From contig JBBRTU010000002.1 of assembly GCA_038244115.1 (NCBI GenBank), forward strand, positions 131,238 to 195,237: a stretch of DNA of 64,000 bases. Direction: 5' to 3'. A program made the translations under genes and the position numbers. Below the pieces are notes generated by a model. The model was given only the letters and a program-made list of their open reading frames with translations. It did no database searches and was not told where the DNA came from. The DNA comes from Burkholderiales bacterium. Lineage in GTDB: Bacteria > Pseudomonadota > Gammaproteobacteria > Burkholderiales > JBBRTU01. This document shows positions 10,867 through 57,590 of this stretch, piece after piece (positions within the stretch are counted from its first letter, which is position 1; every line of letters starts with the position of its first letter).

Positions 10867-11370
10867 ATGGCTATATTAACCATTCTTCATTATCCAGACG
10901 AACGTCTGCACAAGATAGCGGCCCCGGTAGCCGAGGTCAACGACGAAATCCGCAAGTTAATCTCGGATATGGCCGAAACTATGTATGCCGCACCAGGCAT
11001 AGGTCTTGCGGCGACCCAGGTCGATGTTCACCTGCGGGTGATCGTGATCGATATTACGGAACGGCACAATGGACTGACGGTTTTAATCAACCCGCAGATT
11101 CTCGCAGAGGAAGGACGCGAGGAGCGAGAAGAAGGCTGTTTGTCGGTGCCGGGAATTTATGAAAAAGTAACGCGCGCGGAAAAAATAACCGTGCGCGCAC
11201 TGGACCAGGAAGGCAAGCCTTTTACCATGGAGGTCAGCGGTTTGCTGGCTGTATGCATACAGCATGAAATAGACCATCTAAGCGGCAAAGTGTTCGTTGA
11301 ATATTTATCCCGCCTGAAGCAAACGCGCATTAAAAACAAATTGAAAAAACATCTGCGCGAGACTATGTAA
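10867..11370 (+). CDS. def: Peptide deformylase
   Basis: 167-aa ORF with [17 protein letters not shown] and HEIDHL motifs. Confidence 0.95.
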
Positions 11371-12299: not shown

Positions 12300-12358
12300 A
12301 TTTTTCTGCAACTACCTTATCTAATCAGTGTACTTAGGCACCACCCAAAGGAAAAATT

Positions 12359-15099: not shown

Positions 15100-15102
15100 C
15101 CG

Positions 15103-18488: not shown

Positions 18489-18532
18489 GTTAGAATCGCA
18501 TGTTTTATAGAGGGCGCTCTTGAAGCGAAGCC

Positions 18533-39679: not shown

Positions 39680-40389
39680 GCCTGCTGGAAGTGCGCGGCT
39701 TGTCCGTGTCCTATGGCGGCATCAAGGCGGTGCGCGGTATCGACCTGGAGGTTTGTGAAGGCGAGTTGGTATGTCTGATCGGCGCCAACGGCGCGGGCAA
39801 GACCACCACCTTGAAAGCGCTAGCGGGACTGCTGCCGTCGCGCGGATCGGTGGCTTATCAAGGGAAAAGCATACTTAATTCTCCCTCGCATGAACTGGTG
39901 AAACAGGGCATCGCCCTGGTGCCGGAAGGACGTGGTATTTTCGGACGACTCACGGTAGCAGAAAATTTGGAAATGGGCGCTTATAGCCGCCATGATCGCG
40001 CTGCAATTAAATCTGATTTGCAGCGCGCATACACGCTATTTCCCCGCTTGTTTGAACGCCACGCGCAAAAGGCTGGTACGCTTTCCGGCGGCGAACAGCA
40101 AATGCTTGCCATAGGCCGCGCGTTGATGAGCAGACCGAAATTGTTATTGCTCGACGAACCCAGCATGGGCCTGGCGCCGCTCATGGTTGCGAAAATTTTT
40201 CAAACAGTTAAAGAAATTTCCGCCGAGGGCGTTACCATATTGCTGGTGGAGCAAAATGCCAGACAAGCGCTGGAGGTGAGCCACCGTGGTTACGTCATGG
40301 AAAGCGGAGCGGTGGCAATGCAGGATGAGGCAAAAATGTTGTTCAACAATCCCCAAGTAAAAAGTGCTTATTTGGGAGAATCTGCATGA
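39676..40389 (+). CDS. livF: LIV ABC transporter ATP-binding protein LivF
   Basis: The GTG at 39676 overlaps the livG stop (GTGA). Walker A GANGAGKTT, signature LSGGEQQML, Walker B LLLLDEPSMG. Confidence 0.9.
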   Translation: MSLLEVRGLSVSYGGIKAVRGIDLEVCEGELVCLIGANGAGKTTTLKALAGLLPSRGSVAYQGKSILNSPSHELVKQGIALVPEGRGIFGRLTVAENLEMGAYSRHDRAAIKSDLQRAYTLFPRLFERHAQKAGTLSGGEQQMLAIGRALMSRPKLLLLDEPSMGLAPLMVAKIFQTVKEISAEGVTILLVEQNARQALEVSHRGYVMESGAVAMQDEAKMLFNNPQVKSAYLGESA

Positions 40390-42014: not shown

Positions 42015-42029
42015 TTTTAGAGGCGAAAA

Positions 42030-42725
42030 ATGGCAGACCAACTCGCGCAACAACCACTTACCCCAGATTTGGCCACCCTCCTTGCCGGCAATATTCACGA
42101 GGTAAAAAACCTTCTGGCGCAATTGTTCCTCGCCCTGGACGAAGCCTCGTTTACTGCACAAACCGATTGCCCCCATCTGGCGCAACGCCTCACCGAGATG
42201 CGTTTGACGGGGCGCCGGGTGCATGACCGGCTGCTGCATATCCTCACTGTGTACAAAGCAGAAAGCGGGTTTTTTTCCGCCAACCTCAATGCATACGATC
42301 CCGCCGAAGTAATTGAAGATCTTGCGCTGGAAGCAAAGTCCCTCGTGGGCAAGCGCTTGAGCGTGACCAATGAATGTCACGCACCGCCACATTGGTATTT
42401 TGATCGCTACCTGGTGGAAAGCGCGCTGACCAACGCGCTACACAACTCGCTACGTCAGGCTCGCTCTCGTATCGCGCTCAGTGCGCATGATGAAGACGGT
42501 TATTTGGTGCTGAAAGTCGAAGACGACGGCCCCGGCTTTCCAGAGGACATGTTGCGAAACGATTCGGTACCATTGTCCAATGGAGAGGAAGGCCGCACTG
42601 GACTGGGTTTGTATTTTTCCCGCACAGCCGCCGCCGCTCATCGGGACAAGGAACGAGCCGGCTTCGTCCGCATCGAAAACGGCGGGAGCTTAGGCGGCGC
42701 AGTGTTTTCGCTTTATCTGCCGTAA
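42030..42725 (+). CDS. Soluble sensor-less histidine kinase core (DHp + HATPase_c only)
   Basis: 231-aa ORF with H-box NIHEVKNLL about 20 aa from the N-terminus, N-box LTNALHNSLRQA, G1 EDDGPGFP and G2 GRTGLGLYFS. It has no TM or sensory domain. Confidence 0.75.
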   Translation: MADQLAQQPLTPDLATLLAGNIHEVKNLLAQLFLALDEASFTAQTDCPHLAQRLTEMRLTGRRVHDRLLHILTVYKAESGFFSANLNAYDPAEVIEDLALEAKSLVGKRLSVTNECHAPPHWYFDRYLVESALTNALHNSLRQARSRIALSAHDEDGYLVLKVEDDGPGFPEDMLRNDSVPLSNGEEGRTGLGLYFSRTAAAAHRDKERAGFVRIENGGSLGGAVFSLYLP

Positions 42726-43150: not shown

Positions 43151-43867
43151 TTGAAGTCCAACTCTTGCACCCTACTTGTAATCACATCCCTGTGCCTAGG
43201 TTCGCTGTCTGTGTCCTCTGCATATGCGGCTAGCTACTCAATTGCCGTTATGAATATAACAAGCGGTGGGTTTGTCGCTTATGACTATCTAAATCAACCG
43301 GTTACCAACCCAGATTCAGGCGGTACTTTCACACCTTTTTCAATAATTGGATCTAATACGAATTTGGTCGGGGGCTATCTCGGCAACACCAGTTCTGGCG
43401 CTTTAAGTGGGTTTTGGTATGGCGGCGCATTCCAGATGTACACCGCGCCTTCCAATTTGGGCGGCACTTATGTGCCAGCAGGAACTGTTCAAGGCGGTCT
43501 AGTACCTAGCGGCACGCTAGATAATGTTGCCGGCACTATAACAATGGATTTAAGCTCTTTATTTGCTTACTGGGGTGGTCTTGACTTTCACCAAGGAACC
43601 GGAAAGAACGACGGAGTAACTTCGACACTTGCAACTGGACTATGGGACTCAAGCAGCGGGCATTACAGTTTGTCATGGACTTCAAGTACTAATTTTTCAA
43701 ATAGCAATCCTTACGTGTGCGATTTTCAGTCACCAACTTGCTCGGCAAAATACACGCTAGAAGGTTATGCTGCCACCAGTGCAGTACCTGTCCCTGCGGC
43801 AGTTTATCTGCTTGGATCCGGCATACTTGGCCTCTTAGGCTTTGTTAGCAGGCGCAAGTCAGCTTAA
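43151..43867 (+). CDS. Secreted protein with VPxPA-type (PEP-CTERM-like) C-terminal sorting signal
   Basis: 238-aa ORF with a TTG start 6 nt after ggagga and a signal peptide. The C-terminus is SAVPVPAAVYLLGSGILGLLGFVSRRKSA (motif + TM + basic tail). Confidence 0.75.
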   Translation: MKSNSCTLLVITSLCLGSLSVSSAYAASYSIAVMNITSGGFVAYDYLNQPVTNPDSGGTFTPFSIIGSNTNLVGGYLGNTSSGALSGFWYGGAFQMYTAPSNLGGTYVPAGTVQGGLVPSGTLDNVAGTITMDLSSLFAYWGGLDFHQGTGKNDGVTSTLATGLWDSSSGHYSLSWTSSTNFSNSNPYVCDFQSPTCSAKYTLEGYAATSAVPVPAAVYLLGSGILGLLGFVSRRKSA

Positions 43868-44031: not shown

Positions 44032-45321
44032 CTAAATCGGTTCAAAGTCTGCGGCTATGGCGTCAGCGGTTGTAGCGTTCAAACCCGCTTTGTTGGCAAA
44101 TTTCAACCAGCTATCCAGGGCGGCGCGCACGTCCGCCAGCAAATCCAATGGGCGACGGACGCCAAAACGATCCGCTTCTATCAATAAATCGGCGCGCGTA
44201 ATCGCGCCGAACTTCCCGTTGACGTTCATCAGATGCTGATAAGTCCATTCCCCCCGGGGGTTGTAAGCATGCGTCACGTCGTAGGCCGGAGCCAGTTCCC
44301 ATGATCCGCCCTGCTTCAGGCGGAAAGCAGAATTCTTGGTGTGATCGTCACAGTTTTTTGCCATGACATTAAATGCCATGCGGCGGAAAGCTTGGCTGAT
44401 GGCTTCGTCTCCCAATTTGAGCTTGGCGATAACCATGAAAAGCTGGGCGTAGGCATGGGTGGCGCGTTGCTTGTAGTCAAGGTGATCCAGGGCGCAGAGT
44501 GTTTGCACGTGGTGCTTGATAGTGCCTTGGTCACGCGCTTCACGGTCGAAGCGGCGAGTCATGAAGTGAGCTCGGCCACCTTCTTCCAGCAACCGACAAG
44601 GTGACATGCTGATGCCGGCGGCAGTAGCCATCAGCTGGTAGGCGTATTCGATGCGGCCGTAATCCGCAGTGCCGCCCAATTCCAGGTCTTTGCCAATGCC
44701 ATCGAACTTGAGCAACCAATGCTCGAAGCCGGGGGCGGCATCGAACTGGCCGCTGCGAATCTGGTTTGTCTGCGGGTTCCAAGTGACGACTGCTTTCGCA
44801 CGCGCGCCACCCGCAGAGGTGCCGACCCGGATGACATTGGCGAGCGCTGCCTGCGCCTGCACGTCGCCGGACAGATCGCCATGAACCACTTTGCGCGCAG
44901 TTTCTACCAGCGTTTGCATCTCCAGCGGTTCGGCGCTTTCACGATGAGCGCCGCGTGCGGGTTTAAATTCCAGCGCGCCCATGCCACGCTTGCCCATGTA
45001 GGCGAGACGATCGAGCGTGGTGATGGCGCGTTTTTCGACCCCCTTGCGGGTCATCCAGGCATCGATTAGCGCATTGCCGAAGTCGTCGGGCAGCGCGTCG
45101 GCAAGCAATCCGGGCAGTCGTTTGAAGCTGGGTTCGGAAAGATCAGGAAAAGCAAAGGTGGGCTGGATATCATCCAGCGGCATAGTGAGCGGTGCCAATT
45201 CGATTCCGCTACGCCGCCAGGCGGGGTCGTAGGCAAACACATAACAGCCCAGGCGCGGATCTGGCGCCACGGCGCCAACACGCTTACCCCAGATGCGCAC
45301 TTCAATGACTGGGGTATCCAT
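44032..45321 (-). CDS. hipA: Type II toxin HipA-family Ser/Thr kinase
   Basis: 429-aa ORF with a typical HipA N-terminal coupling domain (IWGKRVGAV...) and a kinase core with NCDDHTKNSAF (catalytic loop D.H.KN). Confidence 0.9.
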   Translation of the reverse strand: MDTPVIEVRIWGKRVGAVAPDPRLGCYVFAYDPAWRRSGIELAPLTMPLDDIQPTFAFPDLSEPSFKRLPGLLADALPDDFGNALIDAWMTRKGVEKRAITTLDRLAYMGKRGMGALEFKPARGAHRESAEPLEMQTLVETARKVVHGDLSGDVQAQAALANVIRVGTSAGGARAKAVVTWNPQTNQIRSGQFDAAPGFEHWLLKFDGIGKDLELGGTADYGRIEYAYQLMATAAGISMSPCRLLEEGGRAHFMTRRFDREARDQGTIKHHVQTLCALDHLDYKQRATHAYAQLFMVIAKLKLGDEAISQAFRRMAFNVMAKNCDDHTKNSAFRLKQGGSWELAPAYDVTHAYNPRGEWTYQHLMNVNGKFGAITRADLLIEADRFGVRRPLDLLADVRAALDSWLKFANKAGLNATTADAIAADFEPI

Positions 45322-45641
45322 CAGCTTTCTTTGCGTAGCTTGGCAGTTCGCCGCGCGCGTTGCGGCGCTTTGGCCTGACGCAACAAATCTAGTGGGTTAA
45401 CGCTGATTTCTGGCGCAAGCATCTCAATCCCCTGAAGATATTCGAGCGCCTTCAATACACGCAACAAAGTTTCCACAGTTGAGCCTCGCCCGGCTTCAAG
45501 ATTGCGCAGCGCTTTTTCAGAGATGCCGGCTTTCTCGGCGGTGGTACGTTGATCTAGATTGCGATTTAGACGCAAGCGTCGTAGCCGTTTCCCTAGTACG
45601 GTTTGGAGTTCTTCTGGCGTGTTGAATAGCAGTTCACTCAT
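45321..45641 (-). CDS. hipB: HipB-like XRE-family HTH antitoxin
   Basis: 106-aa ORF with HTH LDQRTTAEKAGISEKALRNLEAG. Its stop overlaps the hipA start (TGATG). Confidence 0.85.
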   Translation of the reverse strand: MSELLFNTPEELQTVLGKRLRRLRLNRNLDQRTTAEKAGISEKALRNLEAGRGSTVETLLRVLKALEYLQGIEMLAPEISVNPLDLLRQAKAPQRARRTAKLRKES

Positions 45642-45913: not shown

Positions 45914-47377
45914 TCACAGCATTTTCAGATATTCAATCAAGGCCTCCTTATCAGTAGCAGGCAGCGTGGTGCCGTATTCATGCCCCCGGTTGCTGTTACC
46001 TTTGCGGCTTGCGTCCTGCTTGGAGCCTACGCGTTGCGCATCCTCACCCTGCACGATGAAGCCGGCATTCACCTGGTCGTACACGTCATAACCACGGTAG
46101 AACACGCTGGGCCGTTCGGCGGCTGGCGTCAATAGATCGCGTAGCGTCGGCACCGAACCATTGTGCAGGTAGGGCGCACGCAGCCAGATGCCGTCGAGAA
46201 AGGGGATGAGGTAACCGGTCAGGGTTTCCTCCACCAGCCCCTTGCGTTCCAGCCCCATGTCGCGCACCGTCTTGTTGGCGGCAATGGCGGCGGACTTGTT
46301 CCACGAATCCAGGCGACCTCTGTCGGTGCCGATCTCGGCTAGCAGCATGCGTGTGCCGGTACGCGCGCTAGCGTGGCAACTGGCGCAGTGCTGGTCGAAC
46401 ACCGTCTTGCCCTGCGCCGCTTTGTGCTTATCCAGCGCAAACGGATACTTCGGCGCGGGTTCTTTCAACAAATACTCGTGCAACCACTTTACCTGGCCGA
46501 GAAACGCTTGCTTGTCGTGCGGCGCGGCGCCGAGCACGCCGAGCGCAGAATCCATAATGACGGAATAAGCGTCGTGGCTATCGCCAGCCAGATTCATGAA
46601 CATGCCTTGTTCCGCTTTGTACTTTTGCAGGTTCCATACCGATGGCATGTCTGTCGGACCGAAGGTGTCGTCCATCGGTGCCTTGATCATGAAGTACTTG
46701 GTGAGGTTCATCGCGTCATCGCGCCCGCGCCCCCAGTCGGGAAAGTCCTTGCGGTAGATCCAGGCGAACTGCGCTTCGCGCTCGAGCAATCTCTTTTTTG
46801 TCATGGGGATGATGAGGTAGCGGTAGGCCAATTTGTCGATCCAGTCGAGATCGGTCACCAGCGCAATTTCGGCCATTATGTTGTCGGCATTAAAGCGCGG
46901 ATCGCGCGCACAGTCGACCAGGTAGCGGAAAAATGCCTGGACGTTGGTGGTGTGCCCCGGGCCGGCCACCACGTAAGTTGGCTGCTCATCCGGCTTCGAG
47001 CGGTAGCTTGCGGTGTGACACACAGCGCAATTATTACCCACACGCGGGAAGCCGATAACCTTTTTGGTGAATCCTACCGGCAGCTCCTGGCCCGGTTCCC
47101 ATGGCACACCGAGCGAAGCGTAGCCACCCGGCCCCGGCAGTTTTTCCGGGAACATGCGCGGCAGTACGTAGAAAATCCAGTAAGGAATGCCGGCATCGAA
47201 CTCGGCGCCGATGGAGCCGTATTTGAAACGCATCTCGGGGGTGGCCGTCACCCAGTCAGGCTGCGCCTCCTCGCGAAAAAACTTGTACCAGCCGACAAAG
47301 GCGCCCACCATGCCGAGCACCAGCAGCGCAATGCCGAACGCACGCAACAGCCGGCAATTTTTCATCAAGCAAGCCAT
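45914..47377 (-). CDS. Membrane-anchored di-haem c-type cytochrome, CCP/MauG-like C-terminal signature (paralogue A)
   Basis: 487-aa ORF with an N-terminal TM anchor and two CxxCH sites (CAVCH, CASCH). Motifs LRAPYLHNGSVPTLRDLL and a C-terminal GHEYGTTLPATDKEALIEYLKML. RBS gggga precedes the ATG. Confidence 0.75.
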   Translation of the reverse strand: MACLMKNCRLLRAFGIALLVLGMVGAFVGWYKFFREEAQPDWVTATPEMRFKYGSIGAEFDAGIPYWIFYVLPRMFPEKLPGPGGYASLGVPWEPGQELPVGFTKKVIGFPRVGNNCAVCHTASYRSKPDEQPTYVVAGPGHTTNVQAFFRYLVDCARDPRFNADNIMAEIALVTDLDWIDKLAYRYLIIPMTKKRLLEREAQFAWIYRKDFPDWGRGRDDAMNLTKYFMIKAPMDDTFGPTDMPSVWNLQKYKAEQGMFMNLAGDSHDAYSVIMDSALGVLGAAPHDKQAFLGQVKWLHEYLLKEPAPKYPFALDKHKAAQGKTVFDQHCASCHASARTGTRMLLAEIGTDRGRLDSWNKSAAIAANKTVRDMGLERKGLVEETLTGYLIPFLDGIWLRAPYLHNGSVPTLRDLLTPAAERPSVFYRGYDVYDQVNAGFIVQGEDAQRVGSKQDASRKGNSNRGHEYGTTLPATDKEALIEYLKML

Positions 47378-47386
47378 GCTTTTCCC

Positions 47387-48862
47387 CTAGAAAGTTTTCA
47401 TATATTCGATGAGTGCTGCCTTGTCTTCCGGCGGCAGTGTGGTGCCGAAACGCGGGCCATCGTGGCCCTGATTGCCGTTGCCGGACAGTCTGGTGTCATA
47501 GCGGAAATATTTGCGCGCGCCTTCCTCTGCGACAGTGGAAACGAAGCCCATGCGAACGGCGTCGTACACGTCGTATCCCCGGTAAAATATTTTTGGCCGC
47601 CTGTCTGCGGGTTCGAGTAGATCGGCCAGGGTCGGCACCGAACCATTGTGCAGATAGGGCGCGCGCAGCCACAATCCATCCAGCGGCGCATTGGCGTAAC
47701 CCCAGGTTTTACGGAAGTGGCTGAAGCGCTCGTCGCCATAGCCGGCATACACCGTGGCCTGGTTCAGCGCGAGGTCGGGCGTGTAGGAATCCAGGCGCCA
47801 ACGGTCCGTGCCGATGTCAAGAATCGGCGTGACCTTGCCCACGTATTCCCCGCTGAAGTTGCTGCCATTCACACCGTGGCATGCAGCGCAGTATTGTTGA
47901 TACACACCTTTTCCGCGCGCCGCTCGGTTCTGGTCGATGGGATAAGGCCAGGGCGGCGGGGTGGCAGTGGCCAGCCAGGCTTCCACGCGCTTGAGATTAT
48001 GGCGATCCAGCGTGGGCGGCGTGGTGCCGGCGCCCAACGCAGCGCTGTGATTGCGCTCCTCCAGCTTGTCATTATTGCCGTCCCAATGCAGTTGCATGCC
48101 ACGCTTCTTGGCCTGATTCCAGATGGCGGGGAAATCTGCCGTGCCGATCAGTTCGTGCGGGTCGGCGCGGTGCCAGGGCATGTTGAACAACGCCTTGGCC
48201 GAGTTGAAAGTATCCACCCTACCCGGCCCCCACTCGGGTTGACCATCGATAAAGGAGAAGCGCTCACGCAGCATCATCAGTTGTTCGCGCATGAGCAAAG
48301 TTGCCAGCGGGTAGACCAGGTAATGGTCGATCAGGTCGAGTTTGCCGCCGGTCTTTTCGATGGCGGGAATCATATATTCGCGCGAGAAACGCTTGTCGGC
48401 GGCACACTGAAAGAAAAATTTCTCGAAGCGCATCAGATCGAAAGAATTAGCCGGCATACCGGCGACAATGCGTGGCGTGGATGCTGGCGTGTCGCGCACG
48501 GTGTTAACGTGGCAAACCGCGCAATTGAGGAACACCCGATTCATGCCTTGATAGCGGCGCTGGGAAGTACCAATGGGAAGGTCGCGACCTTTTTCGTAGA
48601 TCATGCCGAGTGAAGCATAACCCTTGCCCGGCAGCAGATCCGGGCACACCTCAGGCAGCGCTTTCCAGATGCGGTAGGGGAAACCGGAGACGCGCTCGCC
48701 ACCCAGAGAGCCATACTGGAAGTGCTGTACCGGATCGCGGTATTCCACGGGGGAATCGCCGGAGAAGCGCCAAGCCAGGTACAGCACCAGCAGCAGGCCG
48801 ATACCCGCCAGGAAAAAAAGCGCGGTGCATATACATCCGCGCAGAGTGCAAAGTCGAGACAT
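47387..48862 (-). CDS. Membrane-anchored di-haem c-type cytochrome (paralogue B)
   Basis: 491-aa ORF colinear with paralogue A, with CAVCH and CAACH sites. Motifs LRAPYLHNGSVPTLADLL and GHDGPRFGTTLPPEDKAALIEYMKTF. Confidence 0.75.
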   Translation of the reverse strand: MSRLCTLRGCICTALFFLAGIGLLLVLYLAWRFSGDSPVEYRDPVQHFQYGSLGGERVSGFPYRIWKALPEVCPDLLPGKGYASLGMIYEKGRDLPIGTSQRRYQGMNRVFLNCAVCHVNTVRDTPASTPRIVAGMPANSFDLMRFEKFFFQCAADKRFSREYMIPAIEKTGGKLDLIDHYLVYPLATLLMREQLMMLRERFSFIDGQPEWGPGRVDTFNSAKALFNMPWHRADPHELIGTADFPAIWNQAKKRGMQLHWDGNNDKLEERNHSAALGAGTTPPTLDRHNLKRVEAWLATATPPPWPYPIDQNRAARGKGVYQQYCAACHGVNGSNFSGEYVGKVTPILDIGTDRWRLDSYTPDLALNQATVYAGYGDERFSHFRKTWGYANAPLDGLWLRAPYLHNGSVPTLADLLEPADRRPKIFYRGYDVYDAVRMGFVSTVAEEGARKYFRYDTRLSGNGNQGHDGPRFGTTLPPEDKAALIEYMKTF

Positions 48863-50877
48863 TACGTTCCTCCATGCGCCGGGAGACAGGGCGCAAGCGT
48901 GTCGAATGGACGTGCCAGTACACCGGGCGCATGTGCCCCCAGCAGCAATCCAGCATGTTGTTTGAGTTTGGCGAGCGCAGTGCCGTGTGTCCAGGCATCA
49001 ATAGAAATGCCGCGCATCTGCAATACAGTGGCGGGCGGCATCGGGGTGCGTTCCCGCGCCGCCTCGTCCACTCTCCACATCGACAGGCGGTAGTAGATGC
49101 GCTCGGCGCAGTGTGAAAGCTGGGTCTGCACCTGCGCTTCTTCGCCATGTAAAAAATTAGGCGGGAACGCTTCCTGGGTGTCATGGCAGAGACCACAGTG
49201 GGCGCGGAATTCCGTCACTATGTTGCTGGCATGGCCCGCGCTGGGTGCAATGTCAGTCTGCGCTGACGAATATTTTTGTGCCGCTGCTGCGTGGTGTGGA
49301 ATGCCCACGCCCGCAAACAAAGCGGGTACCAGTGCCGCGTGCCGAATCGGCCCCGCAAGCGCCTCGGCTCGGCTGCGCACCATGGCATCGAGCGTGGAAT
49401 CCACCACGCCGAATTCGTCGCGCAGTTGCAGCGTGGCGTGAGCGCCGGTTGGCGTAATCTGCACATCGATGGCGATCACGCGCTGTGCGGACACGCTGCG
49501 CACATTGCGCCCGTCGCGTCGCAAGCCGAAATGCAATGCACCTGCATGCGCTGTTCCTGCCATCACCTCGACAGTGGCCAGCGCGGGCTGACCGGGCAGT
49601 TCCAGTGCATCGAGCGTGCCGCGCACTACTCGACCAGCGCGCACGAACACGCGTCCGCGCAGGCCGAATCCTGCCGCATCCTTCGGCTGGCAGTTGAGTG
49701 AAAACCGATTTTCAGAATCTGTATTTCGTTGCTCCACCGCGCATTCAGCGGCGAGGTTGCGGGTACTTTCTGCCTGGCGCGACAGAGCGGCGTCCAGGCT
49801 GGCGATATCGCGCGCACTGAAAAAATCCGCCACGCCACTTACCAGATTCGCGGCGGCGGTATCCACGTCCCATACAGCCATCGGCGGACGCTGGCGCAGC
49901 GGGTCTGACTCAGCCGTGATGGCGCTGGTCAGCGGATTGCGATTGGGAATATGCGCGTCGGGAATAGCCAAGCCGCCGTGCCAACGTGAAAGAAAAGCAC
50001 TGTGCAGGGTAGGGAGCACGATCTCACGCCACGCCGCCGAGTCATGTTCGAAGTCGAGGCCGCCTGAGAGTCGATATTGCAGCGCGAGTTTAACGGCGGC
50101 AGCGCGGCAGCGCACTGCCTCTGGCGTGGCGCCACCGCACGCTTCGCGCCATAGAAACTGGTATACGTTAAGCAGGCTGGCACGACTGGTGGCGTCATCC
50201 ACCGCGCTGGGTATGTCTACACCGATGTCCAGTGGCGCGCCATAGAAGTCGCGGTGAGTAGCCTTGAGACGCTGGCGCACGCCATCGTTGGCAGCGGTTT
50301 CGTCCCATAGCGGGCGAGAAAAAACCGGTGCCGCGTTCTGATGGCAGGCCAGGCAAAGACCGCGCTGGGCATACACCACACGCGGCGCGGCGCCGGGCCG
50401 GTAATTACGTACTACTTGATATTCGAAGCGGCCTGCCTCTTCGTTGTAACTGATGGCCTCGATCACGCCGGCCTTCTCGTGATAGCCGAGATAAATGCGA
50501 TCGCGCAGCAATGGCTCACCCGCGCGCGACTCTCCATCCACCGCCACTACCAGCCGCGGATATCTGAAGAAATCCGGCGCAGCGGCATTGCGCACCAATG
50601 AGCGCCCCATGGGGATGAGTACCTGGCGCACCGGATCTGTGCTGCCAGATTCCATGTGCATACGCAGTTGTGCCACCACGCTGGAAAAGGGGAAGGGCAG
50701 GCGATAGCTACCGTTAGCCGTGTACAGTTCATCGAACAGCGAACGACCCCTTGGCGGCAGATCCGGGCCGGGCCTACCGGGATCAATGGCCCACACCGGC
50801 GGCGTAGACGTCATGCCCTCAGCCATGGCTGGCGCCGTGAAAAATAACAGGGTCATGATCCACGCCACACGCGTCAT
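48862..50877 (-). CDS. Secreted 671-aa di-haem c-type cytochrome of unrecognised family
   Basis: Start at the internal Met (MTRVAWIMTLLFFTAPAMAEG signal peptide), whose ATG overlaps the upstream stop (ATGA). CLACH lies in the N-terminal third and CGLCH near the C-terminus. Confidence 0.7.
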   Translation of the reverse strand: MTRVAWIMTLLFFTAPAMAEGMTSTPPVWAIDPGRPGPDLPPRGRSLFDELYTANGSYRLPFPFSSVVAQLRMHMESGSTDPVRQVLIPMGRSLVRNAAAPDFFRYPRLVVAVDGESRAGEPLLRDRIYLGYHEKAGVIEAISYNEEAGRFEYQVVRNYRPGAAPRVVYAQRGLCLACHQNAAPVFSRPLWDETAANDGVRQRLKATHRDFYGAPLDIGVDIPSAVDDATSRASLLNVYQFLWREACGGATPEAVRCRAAAVKLALQYRLSGGLDFEHDSAAWREIVLPTLHSAFLSRWHGGLAIPDAHIPNRNPLTSAITAESDPLRQRPPMAVWDVDTAAANLVSGVADFFSARDIASLDAALSRQAESTRNLAAECAVEQRNTDSENRFSLNCQPKDAAGFGLRGRVFVRAGRVVRGTLDALELPGQPALATVEVMAGTAHAGALHFGLRRDGRNVRSVSAQRVIAIDVQITPTGAHATLQLRDEFGVVDSTLDAMVRSRAEALAGPIRHAALVPALFAGVGIPHHAAAAQKYSSAQTDIAPSAGHASNIVTEFRAHCGLCHDTQEAFPPNFLHGEEAQVQTQLSHCAERIYYRLSMWRVDEAARERTPMPPATVLQMRGISIDAWTHGTALAKLKQHAGLLLGAHAPGVLARPFDTLAPCLPAHGGT

Positions 50878-51746
50878 TCTGCCTTGGCAACGACATGCTG
50901 CTGCGTGCCGCTCCAGCAATCCTCGGGAGTCTGTCCAGCGCGGAATGCCTTGCGCCCGGCATTGTCGAGCGCTTTGCTATAGAGCGTGAAGTTGAGCAGG
51001 AAGGCGCGATCGGTATATGCCCGCCCCAGGTAGAAGCCGGGCCGTATCATGCGGATATCATCGCGCACCTGGAGGCCGCGACGACCCGCCAGAAAATCGG
51101 GGCGCTCGTGGTAGCCGGGCAAGTCATCGGAGAAAGCGTAGTCGATGATAATGGACTCGCGCCGTCCGTCGAGCAGGCTCTGGCCGCAGTAGAGTTTGGC
51201 CGGAAACAGCAGCCAGGCGTCGCGTCCATCCACGCTGATTTTTTGCAGTGATGCTGGGTTATCGATGATGGGTTTTAGAAGCGCCAAGTCGTCGATGCGG
51301 TTGCGCAGCACGCGTTGATCCCGGTAAAACACTTTGCCTTTCCATAGGGTTTCGCCGGCCATATCGAGCTTGCGCACGCCGAGCTGTGCGGTTAGGCCGG
51401 AAAGCCCGCCAAGGATCTCTGCTGCGCGGAATTTGCCCGAAGAACCTTTGGGGAACTGGATTTTTCCATCGAACGGCCCGTCCGGAATCGGTCCGGCGGT
51501 AAGCCGTGCGTAGACTTGGTCAAGCTGCTCCTGATCCAACGTGGCAAGATATTCGGGGGTGATTCTCTCCAGCTCCTTGGCGGGGATGGGGAAGCGGTGC
51601 TCCACCTCGGCGAGATCCATCTTGCTGGAATAAGCCTCTGCATAAGGCGCGAACTTGATTTCCGGTTTGGGTTTGAACATTGCTGCAATCTGGTCACACC
51701 CGGATAGCATAATGAGGAGCATGGTCACAATAAGCGCGCGTTTCAT
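50874..51746 (-). CDS. Lipoprotein of unknown function
   Basis: 290-aa ORF with lipobox LLIMLSGC and RBS gggaga. I recognise no family. Confidence 0.65.
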   Translation of the reverse strand: MKRALIVTMLLIMLSGCDQIAAMFKPKPEIKFAPYAEAYSSKMDLAEVEHRFPIPAKELERITPEYLATLDQEQLDQVYARLTAGPIPDGPFDGKIQFPKGSSGKFRAAEILGGLSGLTAQLGVRKLDMAGETLWKGKVFYRDQRVLRNRIDDLALLKPIIDNPASLQKISVDGRDAWLLFPAKLYCGQSLLDGRRESIIIDYAFSDDLPGYHERPDFLAGRRGLQVRDDIRMIRPGFYLGRAYTDRAFLLNFTLYSKALDNAGRKAFRAGQTPEDCWSGTQQHVVAKAE

Positions 51747-51971: not shown

Positions 51972-54512
51972 CTAAAGCGTCGCGAGGAAGGCAATCAAAG
52001 CCTTCTTATCGGTATCACTCAAGTCCTGGCCGAAACGGTGTCCGTCGTTTTCCACGTCTGCGGTGCAAGAGCTGTAAACCTCCAGCAGCAGCGGCAGCCG
52101 TTCCTTTGCTGCTTTCACCGCCGTGAGCAATTGCGCTGGATCGTTGACAATAGCGCTGGCGATAGTCTTCATTTCCTGCGCCACCTTGTGTCCGTTGTCC
52201 GGGCCAAGCTGCTTGACCAGCCTGGCTTCCAGCACTTCCGGCTGGGTCTTGGCCTGCACTAAATCCACGATAAATGGCTTGTGCTGGAAATTGCCGAGTA
52301 GCCCGGCGTTGGTGCCTGCCGGTATGCGCAGCGTGAAGCCGAAGAGTTTTTTCTCCTCATGACCATCCCATACTTTTGGCCCCAGATCGAGCACGATGTC
52401 CTGGTCCAACTTGGTGATCTTGGGGATGCGTCGCTCCGGATAAAGCAATTCCTGCATCGACGCCTTGTACAACTTATAACGCCCTTCCACACTGGGATCG
52501 TAAGCCCAGCATCCCGGCTGTTTGTCGCTGGGGAGCAATTGCTTGGTCTGCGCATCGACATAGGACGGTCGGTAAAAATCATACGGCTGACCGGTGCCCC
52601 AGCCGCATATCTCCGGGCCTAGCGCGTTGTTATGCATGAATGGCGCGTGCGCCCACAGATTCAGCAGCGAAATATTGCGGTACTGACCGCGGCCACCACC
52701 GTTTTTCTCGGGGATGCCATTGTCGGCTGGCAACGCATGATGGGTAACCGAAGCGAATTCGTCCCACACGTGGCCGGTCATGTGGTTGGAGTGCAATGCT
52801 CGGCAACGGAAGGTGCCGACTTCGGAAGCGGGGGTATGTTTGTCATTGCCGAGCCAGTCTGCGCGCAGACCGGTTTCCTTGGACACGGCATAAAAATCTT
52901 CTTTGCCGGGCTGGCTGGAATGACAACGCGCGCAATTCGCCGCGAACACCCCACGGCCACGGCTGACTGCGCCCTTGTCATATTCGTGTTCCAGATCGGC
53001 AACCAGATCGTCATGGCTGTAGCGCGCCTGCGGATTTTTTTGCTTGAGCATGTTCTCTCGCGCAATGGAAAGATCGGTGGCAGTTGCCTCCTTGGAAGTG
53101 AGGAAGGCGAGGATGTCGGGTAGCCGATCCTCAATCGCACGGAAGTTGGGGCAATCGCGTCGGCACTGGCCAATGCTGAAGGGCGTCTGGCCGAAATTGC
53201 GCGCCTTGGGATCGAGTTGCCTCAGGTCGGTGAGGTGATTCACCCAGCATTGTTCGGAGCACGACCCAATATTAAAGTACACGCGCTGGATAGCACCAAG
53301 CGCGCCAATGGAATCACCGCCATCCTTGAGAATGTGGTGCACGGCTTCTTCCTTTTCGCCACGCTGCCAACACTTGCCCGGTTTGCCAGGCTCACACCAA
53401 CACGCCGTGTCGGGTTCGTCGGCAGCGCAGGAAGCCGTTTTGCGCCAGGCGATGACGCGTTCGCCGGGGTGGGTCGGACGCTGCAGAATGTTAATCAGCG
53501 CGTTCATGGTGCCGGGGTTATTGATCTGGTCAGTGGGCACCGCCGAGGTGTCGCTGGTGCCGGGGCGGGCATGCGCGAAGACCTGCCATTCCAGCGAATC
53601 GCGCGGCATACCGGAAACCATGATTTCCGAAATGTGCGAGTATTGATTACCGATTGCGCCCTTCAGATTTTCCCATCCGGGATGCGCCGGATCTGCCGGC
53701 GGATTGGCAGGATCAAAGGCGATATGACAGGTGCCGCACGCCATGCCAATGCGGAACGGCGGTTGAATCGAGCCATCGACTAGCTTGCTGACTTTGGAAT
53801 CGGACAGCTCCGGATTGACGGAGAGCTTGCGGTTGTAACCTTCCCAGGTACCGAGCTTGCCACCGTTCAGCTGCTTCCATGCTGCGGCGTTGAACAATGG
53901 GTTGGGGAATTTACGCAGCCCCATGATCCCGCTGGAGGTGCCGAATGCCAGGTCGCAAGATGATTGCCTTTGACTTGCATGGCGATCCTTGGGATCAGCC
54001 GGTGCGTCTTTGAAGTCGCAAGCTGCGTCGCGGTAGCCGCTCTTGCCGACGAATTTCAGCAGCTTGTCATCACCCGGACACCAGTCCAAACCGTAAGTCT
54101 CTTCAGGACTTTTTGCGGGACAGTTGGGTGAACCGGGTCGACAGCAGCCGGGGTCGTTGATCATGCCCCAGGTCTTGAAGCGCTCGTCGCGCTTGTCCGT
54201 GCGCAACACACCAAACCAGTCGATCATGACGCCAATGCGTTGCTGAAATACATAAGTATGGAAGCGCTCGTTGCCGGCGGTGGCTTTGTACCAAATCTCC
54301 CGTCCGGCGCGCGCAGAGGGAGTAAGGTCGGCTGCCGCTTGATAAAAACCCGCCTCACTATAATCGCTGCTCACGACCGGCGGGGGTGCTGGCTGCGCAG
54401 CAGCAACTGTCACTTCACGCGCAGCGGGTTGGCCGGTCGGCTGGGCAGCAATGCCGGTTGAAACTCCGAACCCAAAAAACACCAGCGCAGCAATAATCTT
54501 GCCAATTCTCAT
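51972..54512 (-). CDS. Secreted Cys-rich 846-aa di-haem c-type cytochrome, distant paralogue of A/B
   Basis: Signal peptide, then CGTCH and CARCH sites. LWAHAPFMHNNALG and a C-terminal GHRFGQDLSDTDKKALIAFLATL parallel paralogues A and B. More than 20 additional cysteines. Confidence 0.75.
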   Translation of the reverse strand: MRIGKIIAALVFFGFGVSTGIAAQPTGQPAAREVTVAAAQPAPPPVVSSDYSEAGFYQAAADLTPSARAGREIWYKATAGNERFHTYVFQQRIGVMIDWFGVLRTDKRDERFKTWGMINDPGCCRPGSPNCPAKSPEETYGLDWCPGDDKLLKFVGKSGYRDAACDFKDAPADPKDRHASQRQSSCDLAFGTSSGIMGLRKFPNPLFNAAAWKQLNGGKLGTWEGYNRKLSVNPELSDSKVSKLVDGSIQPPFRIGMACGTCHIAFDPANPPADPAHPGWENLKGAIGNQYSHISEIMVSGMPRDSLEWQVFAHARPGTSDTSAVPTDQINNPGTMNALINILQRPTHPGERVIAWRKTASCAADEPDTACWCEPGKPGKCWQRGEKEEAVHHILKDGGDSIGALGAIQRVYFNIGSCSEQCWVNHLTDLRQLDPKARNFGQTPFSIGQCRRDCPNFRAIEDRLPDILAFLTSKEATATDLSIARENMLKQKNPQARYSHDDLVADLEHEYDKGAVSRGRGVFAANCARCHSSQPGKEDFYAVSKETGLRADWLGNDKHTPASEVGTFRCRALHSNHMTGHVWDEFASVTHHALPADNGIPEKNGGGRGQYRNISLLNLWAHAPFMHNNALGPEICGWGTGQPYDFYRPSYVDAQTKQLLPSDKQPGCWAYDPSVEGRYKLYKASMQELLYPERRIPKITKLDQDIVLDLGPKVWDGHEEKKLFGFTLRIPAGTNAGLLGNFQHKPFIVDLVQAKTQPEVLEARLVKQLGPDNGHKVAQEMKTIASAIVNDPAQLLTAVKAAKERLPLLLEVYSSCTADVENDGHRFGQDLSDTDKKALIAFLATL

Positions 54513-54605: not shown

Positions 54606-57590
54606 TTATTTGATGTGGCCAGCCACCTCCCTCACCCACTGGTCACAACTTGATGCCCCGTTACCTTTCCAGTAACCATTTCCAAATAACTCTTCGCCGG
54701 TTAGCAAACCCAGCTGCCGGTAACTTTCAAATTGCGGCTCGTCGAACCACTGGTCAGATGTTGGCTGGTGCGGAAAATCCTGGTGTGTGGTCGCACAATG
54801 ACGCACGTCTATTGGTTCATTGCCGCACAGCAGGGGCTTGACGTAGACCAGGACGCCTTTTTTTCCCGATGCATATTTTATGCGCCCGATAACAAAACGG
54901 ATGCGCGCTTTCGGCTCCTGTTCCAACATCGGTGCCACATCAATGTCTATTTCCGCGCCCATATCTATGCGGCAATTGAGCACCGCGTTTCCCAGGTCTT
55001 CAAATTCGAAGTCAGCGTCACAGCCCCCGTCGCACACCACAATCAACTTGCATTCCCGCCGCACCAATTCGTACAGGCCCAAATTTTCAAAATGGCCGCC
55101 ATCGGAAAGATTAATAAATTGGCTTTGATCGTCCGTGCTGCAGAGCAGTTCTTTCAGTAAGCACCCCAATCCGAACGTGGGGCTGGACAACCTCCTTGCA
55201 TTTTCATATTTTGGATTGCCGCACCACCGTCCCAGCCGGACATTGAAAAAAGTCATGATAAAAGCCAGTGGCGGCGACGTATGGTAGCCTTGATTAGGGC
55301 TTGCCGCCGCGCCGGAAACGGCTATCGCCGTACCCAGCTTGGCGCCTTCCGTAGCCTCTTTCCCCCACCCTTCCTTGCTCATGTATTCCCTGGTTTCACA
55401 GTAGGCTTGCTGCTTATCTGTCAACCTATAACCGCAATGCCTGGGTGAAAAAATGAACGAGCCGCTTAGCCTTTGCTGCCATTCCAAATGTCCTTCCTCG
55501 TTGCCAGCACTAACGGTTTGAGGATTGCTTCCCTTAGTCAAATTCAGCGCGGCATTCACTAAATGAACGGGCCGCTGATTCTCTAATCTGGACATTGGCA
55601 AATCATCGTTGGGATCAAAATCGGTGAAGGCATCACCGCGCCGCACAGGGTTGGAAGCACCGAGGTAACAGCGGGTCAAGCGGTTGCGGTAAAACTGGTG
55701 CATTGAAAACAGATTAATGTCGACCCGAAAAGCCAGAAAAATGCCTACCAGCAGAGAAATCACCATCGCTCCGGGGATGGCATATTCATACTTCGCCCAA
55801 ACCTTCTGTTCCTCAACATAGGTCGCATCTGCGTAGGCTGAGAAATTGGTTGCCCGTTCAGCAAACCAGGTTTCAAGTTTGAAGTTCCGCTCGTCATCGG
55901 CATTATTCTCCATTTGCAATTCATAACGCCTGTGCAGAGGCGTTGCGGTGCCCGATTTAGCCTGGGCTGTCGCAATCACCGGCTGTATTCCCGCGTACTT
56001 CATAAGGCCCTTGTGCGTCCCGACGGACAACAATACGAGCAGCCCGACAATGAACACGTAGGGCGTAATTTTTGCCAAGACCTCCAACCATTTATTGGCG
56101 CACTTGCCGCCCGTTTTTTCGCTGCGCGCTAACAGAACTCCGGCAGTGGAGGATGCCAGCCATGCAATACCGCCGCTGTATGCAAGCCAGGCGCCAAGAT
56201 AATTCCACATTGCCGCACCATAAAACGACACCAGACATAGTCCCGTCCAGGCGAGCTGAATTGCGATAACCAGGCCACCAATACGGCCCAGCCATTCCCG
56301 GCCCTCTTCGCTAAAGTGCCGTTTGCCGATACCAATATGTATCACCAGTCCGAGGCTGAGAATTTGAAACACCGCCGCAGTACCTAAGCCGAAAAGCATC
56401 CAGCTAATATGCTTCACGTCCACCATCATTCCCACCAACTTGGCGCAGCCATAAAGCATCAGCCCCATCGCCGCACCAGGGATTGTCGGAAATAGAAACA
56501 AAAACCAGCGTCGCCACCATTTCCCATCGGGCGAGGCGGCTCCTTCTCCCTTATGTGACTTGGCTAGCCTGGTACGAGCAATTAACCAACCCAGTGACCA
56601 AACCGCACAGTAAATAATGGCACCCGTCGCAGCCCACCAAAGTGCGCCGCCTTCCAGATCGGTAAATTTTTCTTTTAGGGATACGAACTCGGCGGTCACA
56701 ATGAGTGAGGTTAAAAAACCGGGCAGCACCACTCTCATCAAAACCCAAAGACCGTTCGGGCAGCATTTGTCCTTATCATTGTCCTTGTTGCCGTTTCCCT
56801 GCGTGCTACTGGCCAAGGTATTCAACCCTCTTGCAACGCTGGTCGCGGCAAAGATCAACAGGAACGCCAAGGCAACGAAGATCCAGCTACATTCCAGTGA
56901 CCTAATATGAGCCGTCGTATCAGGCGACACAGGAATACCCAAATATGTCAGGCTCGCCAACATGTACTGGCCGAGCCGGGGCGGGGCTTCCCAGAGGGGA
57001 AGCAGCATAAGAGGAAACAGCAACAAGGCCGTTAGCAAGGAAAGCAATATGGCTTGGTTCAGCAACAAATTGCGGGATATATTTGCGACTGCCGCTAGCG
57101 TGTCCAGACTGAAGACACCGTATCGCGGCGTAAGATAATTGCTGTAACGGCGCAGCCAATTAATGGCATGGCCCTCGGGTTTTCTTGGCTCTTTTTCTGT
57201 CTCTGGCCGGGTCTGGATTTCAGCTTCCACCGCTTTGATGGCTAGAGCAATAGACTTCTCTGGTTCTTCCTTTTCAAGCGGATTGATCAACGCTTCGGCT
57301 TTCCTGTTCAGCAGCGCAGAAAACCATCCGCCGATATACCCACCCCCCGAAACTGTGGAGAGGTAATCAATACGCCGCAATAGTCTTTTATTTGCCATTG
57401 CCTGCAGGATGCCGAGATTGAAGGTGGCGCTTCGAATCCCACCACCAGAAAATGCCAGTCCGAATAGCGCGAGGTCCTGACCACCATCGGCTGGGCGCTT
57501 TCCATCCACAGCATCGCGGCAATGACGGATTACCGCCTTTTCACACTCAAAAACTTCCGCCCACATTGGTGCTATTGAATCTTCCGTCAT
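54606..57590 (-). CDS. Patatin-like phospholipase with a large polytopic membrane insertion
   Basis: 994-aa ORF with oxyanion motif FSGGGIRSA (aa 48-55), nucleophile elbow TVSGGG (Ser81) and Asp motif LSDGGHFENLG (Asp about 830). Roughly 10 hydrophobic helices lie between them. RBS ggggaga. Confidence 0.8.
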   Translation of the reverse strand: MTEDSIAPMWAEVFECEKAVIRHCRDAVDGKRPADGGQDLALFGLAFSGGGIRSATFNLGILQAMANKRLLRRIDYLSTVSGGGYIGGWFSALLNRKAEALINPLEKEEPEKSIALAIKAVEAEIQTRPETEKEPRKPEGHAINWLRRYSNYLTPRYGVFSLDTLAAVANISRNLLLNQAILLSLLTALLLFPLMLLPLWEAPPRLGQYMLASLTYLGIPVSPDTTAHIRSLECSWIFVALAFLLIFAATSVARGLNTLASSTQGNGNKDNDKDKCCPNGLWVLMRVVLPGFLTSLIVTAEFVSLKEKFTDLEGGALWWAATGAIIYCAVWSLGWLIARTRLAKSHKGEGAASPDGKWWRRWFLFLFPTIPGAAMGLMLYGCAKLVGMMVDVKHISWMLFGLGTAAVFQILSLGLVIHIGIGKRHFSEEGREWLGRIGGLVIAIQLAWTGLCLVSFYGAAMWNYLGAWLAYSGGIAWLASSTAGVLLARSEKTGGKCANKWLEVLAKITPYVFIVGLLVLLSVGTHKGLMKYAGIQPVIATAQAKSGTATPLHRRYELQMENNADDERNFKLETWFAERATNFSAYADATYVEEQKVWAKYEYAIPGAMVISLLVGIFLAFRVDINLFSMHQFYRNRLTRCYLGASNPVRRGDAFTDFDPNDDLPMSRLENQRPVHLVNAALNLTKGSNPQTVSAGNEEGHLEWQQRLSGSFIFSPRHCGYRLTDKQQAYCETREYMSKEGWGKEATEGAKLGTAIAVSGAAASPNQGYHTSPPLAFIMTFFNVRLGRWCGNPKYENARRLSSPTFGLGCLLKELLCSTDDQSQFINLSDGGHFENLGLYELVRRECKLIVVCDGGCDADFEFEDLGNAVLNCRIDMGAEIDIDVAPMLEQEPKARIRFVIGRIKYASGKKGVLVYVKPLLCGNEPIDVRHCATTHQDFPHQPTSDQWFDEPQFESYRQLGLLTGEELFGNGYWKGNGASSCDQWVREVAGHIK

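Follow-up and report, generated by a model that had tools for sequence, protein, structure and literature searches.

Paired RoxA-like di-haem proteins in a five-gene operon of a Burkholderiales bacterium

Why does a bacterium keep, side by side, two di-haem c-type proteins that are alike from end to end and still differ at the active site, and on what do they act? The question is raised by genes A and B, which lie in the 64,000-nucleotide stretch of contig JBBRTU010000002.1 from a Burkholderiales bacterium that was analyzed here (the window). The original prediction, made from the sequence alone, described A and B as tandem, membrane-anchored paralogues and the product of a nearby gene, C, as a third, divergent copy. 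All three open reading frames (ORFs) were found on the minus strand, as it had described them (Table 1). The analysis allowed us to place A and B next to the rubber oxygenase RoxA and to recognize them as the last two genes of an operon with the order C-E-D-B-A. In the reading that we favour, and to which we give a probability of about 0.5, an unsaturated lipid would be the substrate of B and A on the periplasmic side of the membrane, and the products of E, C, and D would serve as accessory binding or redox components.

Proteins A and B as RoxA relatives

The products of A and B could be aligned over their whole length, with 178 of 501 positions identical (36%), 51% positives, and an E value of 2e-91. 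This confirmed that they are colinear paralogues. All of the motif blocks listed in the original prediction are present in the alignment: FKYGSIG in A and FQYGSLG in B, GYASLG, NCAVCH, CASCH in A and CAACH in B, IGTDRGRLDS in A and IGTDRWRLDS in B, G(I/L)WLRAPYLHNGSVPTL, and FYRGYDVYD. A similarity restricted to the CxxCH motifs had been named as the result that would speak against paralogy, and no such restriction was seen between A and B. A and B are full-length, anciently diverged, and non-redundant paralogues.

Each protein begins with a single hydrophobic helix that has no obvious signal-peptidase site, as seen in both sequences and in the model of A, so the proposed membrane anchoring was upheld (Table 1). 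Haem of the c type is attached to proteins outside the cytoplasm; the catalytic domains of A and B must therefore face the periplasm.

The family identity of the two proteins was determined with profile, structure, and profile-to-sequence comparisons. A and B each scored 58.9 bits with the Pfam family PF21419 (RoxA-like, cytochrome c-like), the cut-off of which is 26.7 bits. Both also passed the NCBIfam model NF040606 (A, 164.5 bits; B, 189.3 bits; cut-off, 150), the name of which, 'di-heme-cytochrome C peroxidase', is an annotation and not a measured activity. The equivalog models for RoxA (NF050033), RoxB (NF050034), and RoxC (NF051462) gave 50.5, 63.1, and 75.7 bits with A and 58.4, 60.9, and 79.2 bits with B, which is far below their cut-offs of 900-1000 bits. 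The classical CCP_MauG domain (PF03150) of cytochrome c peroxidase (CCP) and MauG was not matched by A, B, or C in Pfam at E <= 0.1. An AlphaFold model, built for A only and on 87 A and B orthologues, reached a pLDDT of 86.7 and a pTM of 0.87, and it opens with a long helix of residues 5-33. In a Foldseek search with this model, the top PDB match was RoxA (4b2n), with an E value of 9e-11, a probability of 1.00, and a query TM-score of 0.54 over 611 aligned columns, whereas MauG and other bacterial di-haem peroxidases matched weakly, with E values of 0.017 or worse. The view that the N-terminal haem domain of A and B does not resemble CCP therefore holds for the sequence; it does not hold for the fold, in which the A model matches RoxA and then, weakly, MauG and the peroxidases.

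A combined profile of A and B matched RoxA with an E value of 9e-18 in four colinear stretches, which include the MauG motif and the equivalent of RoxA His641; the stretch around the first CxxCH, taken alone, scores below zero. This match made it possible to assign residue equivalences (Table 1), and the roles of the RoxA residues were taken from PMC6311187. Each half of the protein contains one CxxCH motif; both motifs are invariant in the 87 A and B orthologues, and the C-terminal histidine at the position of His641 is kept in 86 of them. In both proteins, the predicted ligand of haem 1 is a histidine only, and those of haem 2 are a histidine and the conserved C-terminal histidine. On the evidence of sequence and model, we conclude that A and B form a compact branch (~490 amino acids) of the RoxA-like proteins within the bacterial di-haem peroxidase/MauG superfamily. 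They are relatives of RoxA over the whole length, much shortened, and held in the membrane by one N-terminal helix.

The two proteins have diverged where RoxA binds oxygen. Forty-six alignment columns are at least 90% conserved inside each orthologue group and differ between the A and B groups. These columns include a run at A 262-284, equivalent to RoxA 301-317, on the distal side of the O2-binding haem. The position of RoxA Trp302 is occupied by Trp in every B orthologue and by Leu, Phe, Trp, or Tyr among the A orthologues. At the position of RoxA Phe317, an essential residue beside the O2-binding haem (PMC6311187), 116 of the 120 B orthologues have Phe; the A orthologues have Leu or Met there. 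The B protein of the window has Leu276 at this position, which may mean an altered or relaxed activity in its lineage. A protein that is 99% identical to the window B (P0121) likewise has Leu there.

The arrangement of the pair was surveyed by a search of the best 80 genomic loci with the six window proteins. Sixty-seven loci, from many phyla, had enough upstream sequence, and in 64 of them B stood immediately before A. A and B are not the result of a local duplication. Their fixed order fits partners or consecutive enzymes and not redundant copies. The proposed functional diversification of A and B is supported by the group-distinguishing columns.

The operon, its other products, and its distribution

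The five genes C, E, D, B, and A are tightly packed on the minus strand. The stop codon of E and the start codon of D overlap in the sequence ATGA, the stop of D and the start of B overlap in TAATG, and the gap between B and A is 9 nt; co-translation is therefore indicated. Each of the five products has a signal for export or anchoring, which places the haem domains in the periplasm, and eight haem sites are predicted in the four proteins A, B, C, and D. The original prediction had recognized A, B, and C at this locus and missed the five-gene operon with the two-haem protein D and the lipoprotein E. A scan of the region for promoters and terminators gave site counts not above those in shuffled sequence.

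The layouts were counted in 37 fully flanked loci. C-E-D-B-A, as in the window, was found in 20 of them, E'-B-A-C' in nine, and E'-B-A in three; the other five were E'-A (two), B-A (two), and C-B-A (one). Here, E' denotes a 143-amino-acid short form of E without a signal peptide, which precedes B-A, and C' denotes the counterpart of C in the second layout. C adjoins the pair in 30 of the 37 loci. For A, the database holds more than 7900 relatives. A orthologues of 62-80% identity occur in Sulfurirhabdus, Azoarcus, Zoogloea, Accumulibacter, Nitrospira, Binatia, Verrucomicrobiia, Acidiferrales, Limnocylindrales, Thermodesulfobacteriota, Methylococcales, and Alteromonas. When the A and B profile was compared with 1.84 billion cluster representatives (50% identity), 7031 related clusters were found, 1879 of them at E <= 1e-30. 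In a collection with one genome per species, a pattern-limited scan gave at least 491 relatives. The module is found in hundreds of species from many phyla.

Protein C proved to be a secreted protein with a signal peptide, related to A and B in its second half. BLASTP aligned C with A and B at 25% identity over ~130 amino acids around the second CxxCH (E 2e-5 and 5e-5), and a further match covered the final 25 residues. In hhalign, the C profile matched the A and B profile over 176 columns (C 513-846 with A 317-487; probability 98.9%, E 2e-17), in agreement with the statement that the likeness of C is confined to the half with the second haem and to the C-terminal signature. The N-terminal halves gave 22 columns at the first CxxCH, with an E value of 0.018 and a probability of 2.5%. 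A restriction to the CxxCH motif was therefore seen in the N-terminal half of C and not in its C-terminal half. A RoxA-like nature of the N-terminal half was considered and not accepted, as the profile comparison with A and B was not significant. The C profile matched RoxA itself with an E value of 5e-4 in four colinear stretches, each of them weak. C does not match PF21419, for which only two of 25 C-family members reach E 0.003, and its score with NF040606 is 28.7 bits, below the cut-off of 150. The motif that corresponds to PYLHNGSVP of A and B is degenerate in C and reads PFMHNNALG. Members of the C family are 50-86% identical within the window layout and ~27% identical to C'. In light of these comparisons, C is a separate orthologous family, and the idea of a recent third copy was abandoned.

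The high cysteine content noted for C (22 Cys in 846 residues) was confirmed. Eighteen of the cysteines lie outside the haem motifs, and 16 of these are missing from C'; most are conserved in all orthologues of the window layout. Cys422 and Cys450, as well as Cys570 and Cys816, are gained and lost together, and disulfide pairs are therefore suggested. This pattern suggests that the extra cysteines form periplasmic disulfides of one lineage and are not a catalytic feature.

Protein D was found only in the C-E-D-B-A layout, between E and B, and with 30-60% identity it is the least conserved member. It gave no significant sequence match in Pfam, NCBIfam, or the PDB. When its profile was compared with those of A/B, C, and E, just a cytochrome-c-like patch at the second CxxCH of D was matched (probability 50%), so D was not accepted as a relative of any of them.

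Protein E is a lipoprotein with a predicted beta-rich core. It has no sequence match in Pfam or the PDB, and its homologues number 7344; the matches listed are all unnamed or called 'hypothetical protein', and none has a Pfam domain. Its WxGKVF motif raised the suspicion of a GXWXG/DUF4334 protein, which was dismissed after 25 members gave no match to Pfam even at E <= 1. The model of E (pLDDT 75) has a beta-rich domain. In Foldseek, its best match was 4mve, a structural-genomics protein of unknown function (E 2.4e-3), followed by weak matches to fatty-acid- and retinoid-binding barrels with probabilities of 0.33 or lower. Two of the five operon members, D and E, thus lack a sequence match in Pfam or the PDB.

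Table 1. Genes and mapped features of the operon and the adjoining patatin-like gene (window positions)
Feature	Position	Strand	Description
Gene A	45914..47377	-	ORF; last gene of the operon; 487-aa RoxA-like di-haem c-type protein with a membrane anchor
A membrane anchor, residues 8-34	47276..47356	-	N-terminal; hydropathy; helix 5-33 in the A model; translation checked
A haem site 1, CAVCH, C117/C120/H121	47015..47029	-	CAVCH121 = RoxA CSACH195 (C191/C194/H195); colinear with RoxA 189-202; translation checked
A distal-pocket segment MNLAGDS...DSALG	46538..46597	-	RoxA Trp302 and Phe317 positions both Leu, the latter Leu279
A haem site 2, CASCH, C331/C334/H335	46373..46387	-	CASCH335 = RoxA CASCH394; invariant; translation checked
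A MauG motif PYLHNGSVP (H405)	46148..46174	-	PYLH405NGSVP aligns with RoxA PYFH517NGSVP; motif as tabulated in PMC6311187; translation checked
A His466	45980..45982	-	Predicted second axial ligand of haem 2; = RoxA His641, aligned with GNDNGGH641
Gene B	47387..48862	-	ORF; 491 aa, paralogue of A; keeps RoxA-type Trp (LHWDGNN)
B membrane anchor, residues 4-35	48758..48853	-	N-terminal; hydropathy; translation checked
B haem site 1, CAVCH, C114/C117/H118	48509..48523	-	CAVCH118 = RoxA CSACH195; A/B alignment; translation checked
B distal-pocket segment LHWDGNN...SAALG	48032..48091	-	Trp260 = RoxA Trp302; Leu276 = RoxA Phe317 position
B haem site 2, CAACH, C325/C328/H329	47876..47890	-	CAACH329 = RoxA CASCH394; A/B alignment; translation checked
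B MauG motif PYLHNGSVP	47633..47659	-	Same motif as A; translation checked
B His467	47462..47464	-	Predicted second ligand of haem 2; = RoxA His641; A/B alignment; translation checked
Gene D	48862..50877	-	671 aa, signal peptide, two CxxCH; likely ATG at 50877, maximal ORF to 50919
D haem site 1, CLACH	50341..50355	-	Invariant in 20 D orthologues; translation checked
D haem site 2, CGLCH	49183..49197	-	Invariant in 20 D orthologues; translation checked
Gene E	50874..51746	-	290-aa lipoprotein, beta-rich core
E lipobox LSGC	51696..51707	-	Cys17 invariant in 57 orthologues; translation checked
Gene C	51972..54512	-	846 aa, secreted, two CxxCH, 22 Cys; C-terminal half RoxA-like
C haem site 1, CGTCH, C259/C262/H263	53724..53738	-	Invariant in 25 C and C' sequences; translation checked
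C haem site 2, CARCH, C527/C530/H531	52920..52934	-	Invariant; translation checked
C degenerate MauG-like motif WAHAPFMHNNALG	52617..52655	-	hhalign to A/B motif; aligned to RoxA 504-524; translation checked
C C-terminal NDGHRFG	52029..52049	-	Invariant His825 = RoxA His641; aligned to RoxA 618-662 and A/B C-terminus
Patatin-like phospholipase gene	54606..57590	-	994 aa, ~8 membrane segments; 93 bp upstream of C; PF01734 30.7 bits

Other genes were noted around the operon. Directly downstream of A, at 44032-45641 on the minus strand, a HipA-like toxin (429 amino acids) and an HTH antitoxin-like protein (106 amino acids) are encoded with a one-base overlap. A secreted protein of 238 amino acids without a Pfam match is encoded at 43151-43867 on the plus strand, and its C-terminus, VPVPAAVYLLGSGILGLLGFVSRRKSA, resembles a PEP-CTERM sorting signal by eye. 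At 40386-42725, also on the plus strand, one gene encodes a receiver (response regulator) domain fused to a long TPR region, and the next encodes a small protein with a histidine-kinase-type ATPase domain as its sole match; these two genes lie ~3 kb from the operon and on the opposite strand. Between C and E, the window has a gap of 225 bp, where the two Sulfurirhabdus loci L002 and L004 (~2700-5500), those of the nearest relatives with a name, contain three additional genes for a beta-propeller protein, a FecR-domain protein, and a 141-amino-acid protein.

Candidate functions of the B-A pair

The genes that accompany the pair in other lineages were examined for a possible substrate. In the Alteromonadaceae loci L075, L080, and L082 (~3900-11400), the genes for an alpha-dioxygenase-like protein, a catalase-related protein, E', B, and A form a string on one strand. 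The first of these genes encodes a secreted 986-amino-acid protein of the 'animal haem peroxidase' family, for which the plant fatty-acid alpha-dioxygenases are the best PDB matches (E 3e-63), with lactoperoxidase at 1e-6. The second encodes a catalase-related protein of 355 amino acids, which passes PF00199 and has the coral allene oxide synthase domain and the catalase-related protein 3e4w as the best PDB matches. By these matches, the five-gene operon of Alteromonadaceae looks like a bacterial fatty-acid oxygenation cluster. Twelve E'-B-A-C' loci also contain an alpha-dioxygenase-like gene, a GMC oxidoreductase gene follows C' directly in ~18 loci, and three more loci contain an aldehyde dehydrogenase gene.

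Gene fusions were observed as well. In two separate cluster representatives (P0363 and P0364), E' is joined through a membrane helix to a B-type enzyme. In P0458, a catalase-related domain is joined through a membrane helix to a RoxA-like protein, and BLASTP aligned it with the catalase-related neighbour from Alteromonas (E 1e-36). Direct Pfam and PDB searches with the N-terminal domains of P0458 and P0368, which look catalase-like by eye, found nothing. In the window, a gene for a patatin-like phospholipase, whose hydrophobic segments span residues 174-630, lies next to C. Its homologues adjoin the cluster in seven other loci, where the position varies: a homologue may lie upstream of C, overlap the end of A as in Sulfurirhabdus, or stand on the opposite strand. 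It is possibly an accessory gene. As read from these sequences, the neighbour genes and fusions of the other lineages point to lipid oxygenation.

Some further features of the relatives were recorded. The order E'-B-A-C'-GMC, with a convergent alpha-dioxygenase-like gene, is conserved, for example in L044 at 7694-18531. TldD/PmbA protease genes are located upstream in six E'-B-A-C' loci. RoxA-like relatives such as P0369, P0374, P0384, P0393, P0400, P0410, and P0428, among others, have N-terminal extensions of 140-300 amino acids, in which several hydrophobic helices replace the single anchor. P0385 has an Old-Yellow-Enzyme-type flavin mononucleotide (FMN) oxidoreductase domain instead; as a single case, it was not used as evidence.

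In the favoured reading, B would be an O2-activating oxygenase, similar to RoxA or to PA2077 of Pseudomonas aeruginosa, because it retains the active-site Trp of RoxA and, in its orthologues, the Phe. A would catalyze a second, different step or serve as a partner subunit of B, because both RoxA pocket residues are replaced in it. The sequential oleate chemistry of PA2077 and then PA2078 would be the model for B and A. The proposed substrate is an unsaturated lipid; it would lie at the outer face of the cytoplasmic membrane and would most likely be a fatty acid or the hydroperoxide of one. E might hold this hydrophobic substrate, the patatin-like phospholipase, where present, might release it from phospholipid, and C and D might provide further haem chemistry or electron transfer.

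Several points weigh against this proposal. The window layout has no alpha-dioxygenase, catalase-related, or GMC genes and contains D and the Cys-rich C in their place; the link to lipids therefore rests on the other two layouts, the fusions, and the patatin-like gene of a minority of loci. The B protein of the window itself carries Leu276, and not Phe, at the position of RoxA Phe317. The calycin-like assignment of E is weak. Moreover, E is placed in the periplasm in the window layout by its lipobox, whereas E' is placed on the cytoplasmic side in the fusions, since it stands N-terminal to the membrane helix of the B-type enzyme; the two locations appear hard to fit with one fixed role. The membrane-anchored A/B branch is known from sequences alone, and the name given to the family at NCBI is that of a peroxidase. 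The pair was likened to PA2077 and PA2078 by their published description and not by direct comparison of sequences.

A broader version, in which C, E, D, B, and A together form an undescribed membrane-bound periplasmic lipid-oxygenating machine with eight haems, is put forward tentatively and seems doubtful to us at present. If true, it would mean a RoxA-like, oxylipin-type pathway that is not based on lipoxygenase or cyclooxygenase and that is widespread in environmental bacteria.

The main rival of the lipid-oxygenase reading is a peroxidase role, in which A and B would be anchored periplasmic peroxidases for hydrogen peroxide (H2O2) or for organic or lipid hydroperoxides, with electrons from the respiratory chain delivered by C and D. 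Both proteins pass NF040606 and share their superfamily with peroxidases and MauG, B retains the inter-haem Trp that peroxidases and MauG use in electron transfer, and four c-type haem proteins in one operon would suffice for an electron-transfer chain. YhjA of E. coli, a membrane-anchored relative, is among the weak matches and was counted on the same side. We nevertheless consider this role unlikely. The lack of a PF03150 match at E <= 0.1 and the far better fold match to RoxA (E 9e-11 against 0.017 or worse) both speak against it. Plain detoxification would need no fixed, diverged pair plus E, and what adjoins the pair in other layouts is not stress genes but genes for hydroperoxide-forming oxygenases. 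A peroxidase role thus explains neither the pair nor its neighbours.

If A and B were instead RoxA-type dioxygenases that cleave C=C bonds, the substrate could be an isoprenoid lipid, such as a polyprenol, a quinone tail, a carotenoid, a hopanoid, or a squalene-like compound. RoxA, the nearest relative by structure and sequence, cleaves poly(cis-1,4-isoprene), and the equivalents of Trp302 and Phe317 are present in B orthologues. The anchor would put the enzymes beside the isoprenoids of the membrane, and the aldehyde dehydrogenase and GMC neighbours would suit aldehyde or ketone products of cleavage. We regard this as improbable, given the equivalog scores of 50-79 bits against 900-1000, a length one quarter shorter than that of RoxA, and anchoring instead of secretion; the alpha-dioxygenase-like, catalase-related, and patatin-like genes favour fatty acids.

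Still less probable is a function of A and/or B as maturation enzymes similar to MauG or MbnH, which would modify C or E by a cross-link or a protein-derived cofactor. The two proteins belong to the MauG superfamily and have the MauG motif, with the inter-haem Trp in B. Where a member of this superfamily acts on a protein, its gene usually adjoins that of the substrate, which was counted in favour. C, which is unusually rich in conserved Cys and Trp, could be such a substrate, and E or E' accompanies the pair, E' being sometimes fused to B. On the other side, 16 of the 18 extra cysteines of C are missing from C', hence there is no universal target, just 30 of the 37 loci with full flanks have C next to the pair, and three loci lack C altogether. 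E' has no signal peptide and, in the fusions, lies on the opposite side of the membrane from the haem domain.

In the least probable proposal, the operon would serve respiration or electron transfer in the periplasm with an inorganic substrate (a metal, nitrogen, or sulfur compound), and A and B would be redox carriers. This would fit the eight predicted haem sites in four window proteins, the nitrite oxidizers (Nitrospira), sulfur oxidizers (Sulfurirhabdus), and denitrifiers (Azoarcus, Azonexus) among the carriers, and a weak fold match of the A model to the hydrazine synthase chain 5c2v_C (E 0.077), but ordinary heterotrophs (Alteromonas, Zoogloea) carry the genes as well, so no single inorganic metabolism is common to the carriers, the flanking genes are variable and non-respiratory, and the first haem of A and B is, as inferred from the alignment only, open and RoxA-like, without an obvious motif for a sixth ligand.

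A and B are not categorically new, because their superfamily already has a name and annotation models that recognize them exist. No paper on this operon was found in the literature searched. In that literature, the compact anchored architecture, the obligate B-A pairing, the five-gene operon, and the link to alpha-dioxygenase-like and catalase-related genes appear to be undescribed. The proven functions of RoxA-like proteins are just rubber cleavage and, in P. aeruginosa, oleate diol synthesis. The membrane-anchored branch to which the locus belongs is much larger, and among its carriers are groups of ecological importance, such as nitrite oxidizers, polyphosphate accumulators, and Binatia, a soil lineage. 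Under the lipid-oxygenase reading, bacteria would have a common, unstudied route to oxidized lipids, which are signals in P. aeruginosa, and the branch would offer new haem oxygenases to biocatalysis. Under the peroxidase reading, a widespread periplasmic defence against peroxide would have gone unrecognized. As cultured carriers exist, among them Azoarcus sp. KH32C, Zoogloea oleivorans, Rivibacter subsaxonicus, and Alteromonas aestuariivivens, the question can be tested directly under either reading.

Comparison with known systems

Classical di-haem CCP and MauG proteins share the superfamily with A and B, have two c-type haem domains and a MauG-type motif, and give weak fold matches. They differ in that A and B do not match PF03150, have a much larger N-terminal domain, and match the fold of these proteins far more weakly than that of RoxA.

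RoxA, which cleaves poly(cis-1,4-isoprene) (PMC6311187), is the closest relative of A and B by both sequence and fold. It has two CxxCH sites in the same order, the PY(F/L)HNGSVP form of the MauG motif, and the C-terminal His641, and B orthologues retain the equivalents of Trp302 and Phe317. RoxA is a secreted protein of ~660 amino acids, whereas A and B have ~490 and are anchored by an N-terminal helix. Expression of RoxA-type proteins in E. coli is poor (PMC6311187). Both pocket residues are absent from A, and the Phe317 equivalent is absent from the B of the window. Furthermore, A and B are found as a pair in the order B-A, accompanied by E, C, and D, and their carriers are not known rubber degraders. 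As the equivalog scores, the Phe317 position, and the absence of a secreted ~70 kDa form indicate, A and B are unlikely to be rubber oxygenases proper.

A second likeness concerns the neighbours. The linoleate 10S-dioxygenase (cyclooxygenase-like) and the catalase-related hydroperoxide lyase of Nostoc punctiforme, as cited in PMC9579011, and the fusion of allene oxide synthase and lipoxygenase in coral represent the same two enzyme types that are encoded directly upstream of E'-B-A in Alteromonadaceae. The fusion of a catalase-related domain to a RoxA-like protein in P0458 is of the same kind. This likeness comes from neighbours in other genomes and not from genes of the window, and no RoxA-like protein is known to take part in those systems.

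The third system is the pair PA2077 (10S-dioxygenase) and PA2078 (7,10-diol synthase) of P. aeruginosa, which act successively on oleate and were placed in the 'FadCcp' subfamily (PMC4496055). It differs from B and A in length (634 and 624 amino acids against 491 and 487), in having cleavable signal peptides in place of anchors, and in the spacing of the haem motifs, which is 245 and 235 residues in PA2077 and PA2078 and 214 and 211 in A and B; the PA2077/PA2078 spacing was found in none of 510 fetched proteins. Partners like E, C, and D are not described in PMC4496055. In other respects, the two pairs agree. PA2077 and PA2078 are adjacent RoxA-like di-haem paralogues of one operon, 43% identical to each other where A and B are 36% identical; they are periplasmic, and both have the MauG motif and the distal C-terminal His. 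At the position of RoxA Trp302, PA2077 has Trp251 and PA2078 has Ser243, and both retain the Phe317 equivalent (PMC4496055). The inter-haem Trp is thus retained in one paralogue and lost from the second, as in B and A, and this only characterized tandem pair of RoxA-like proteins has fatty acids as its substrate (PMC4496055).

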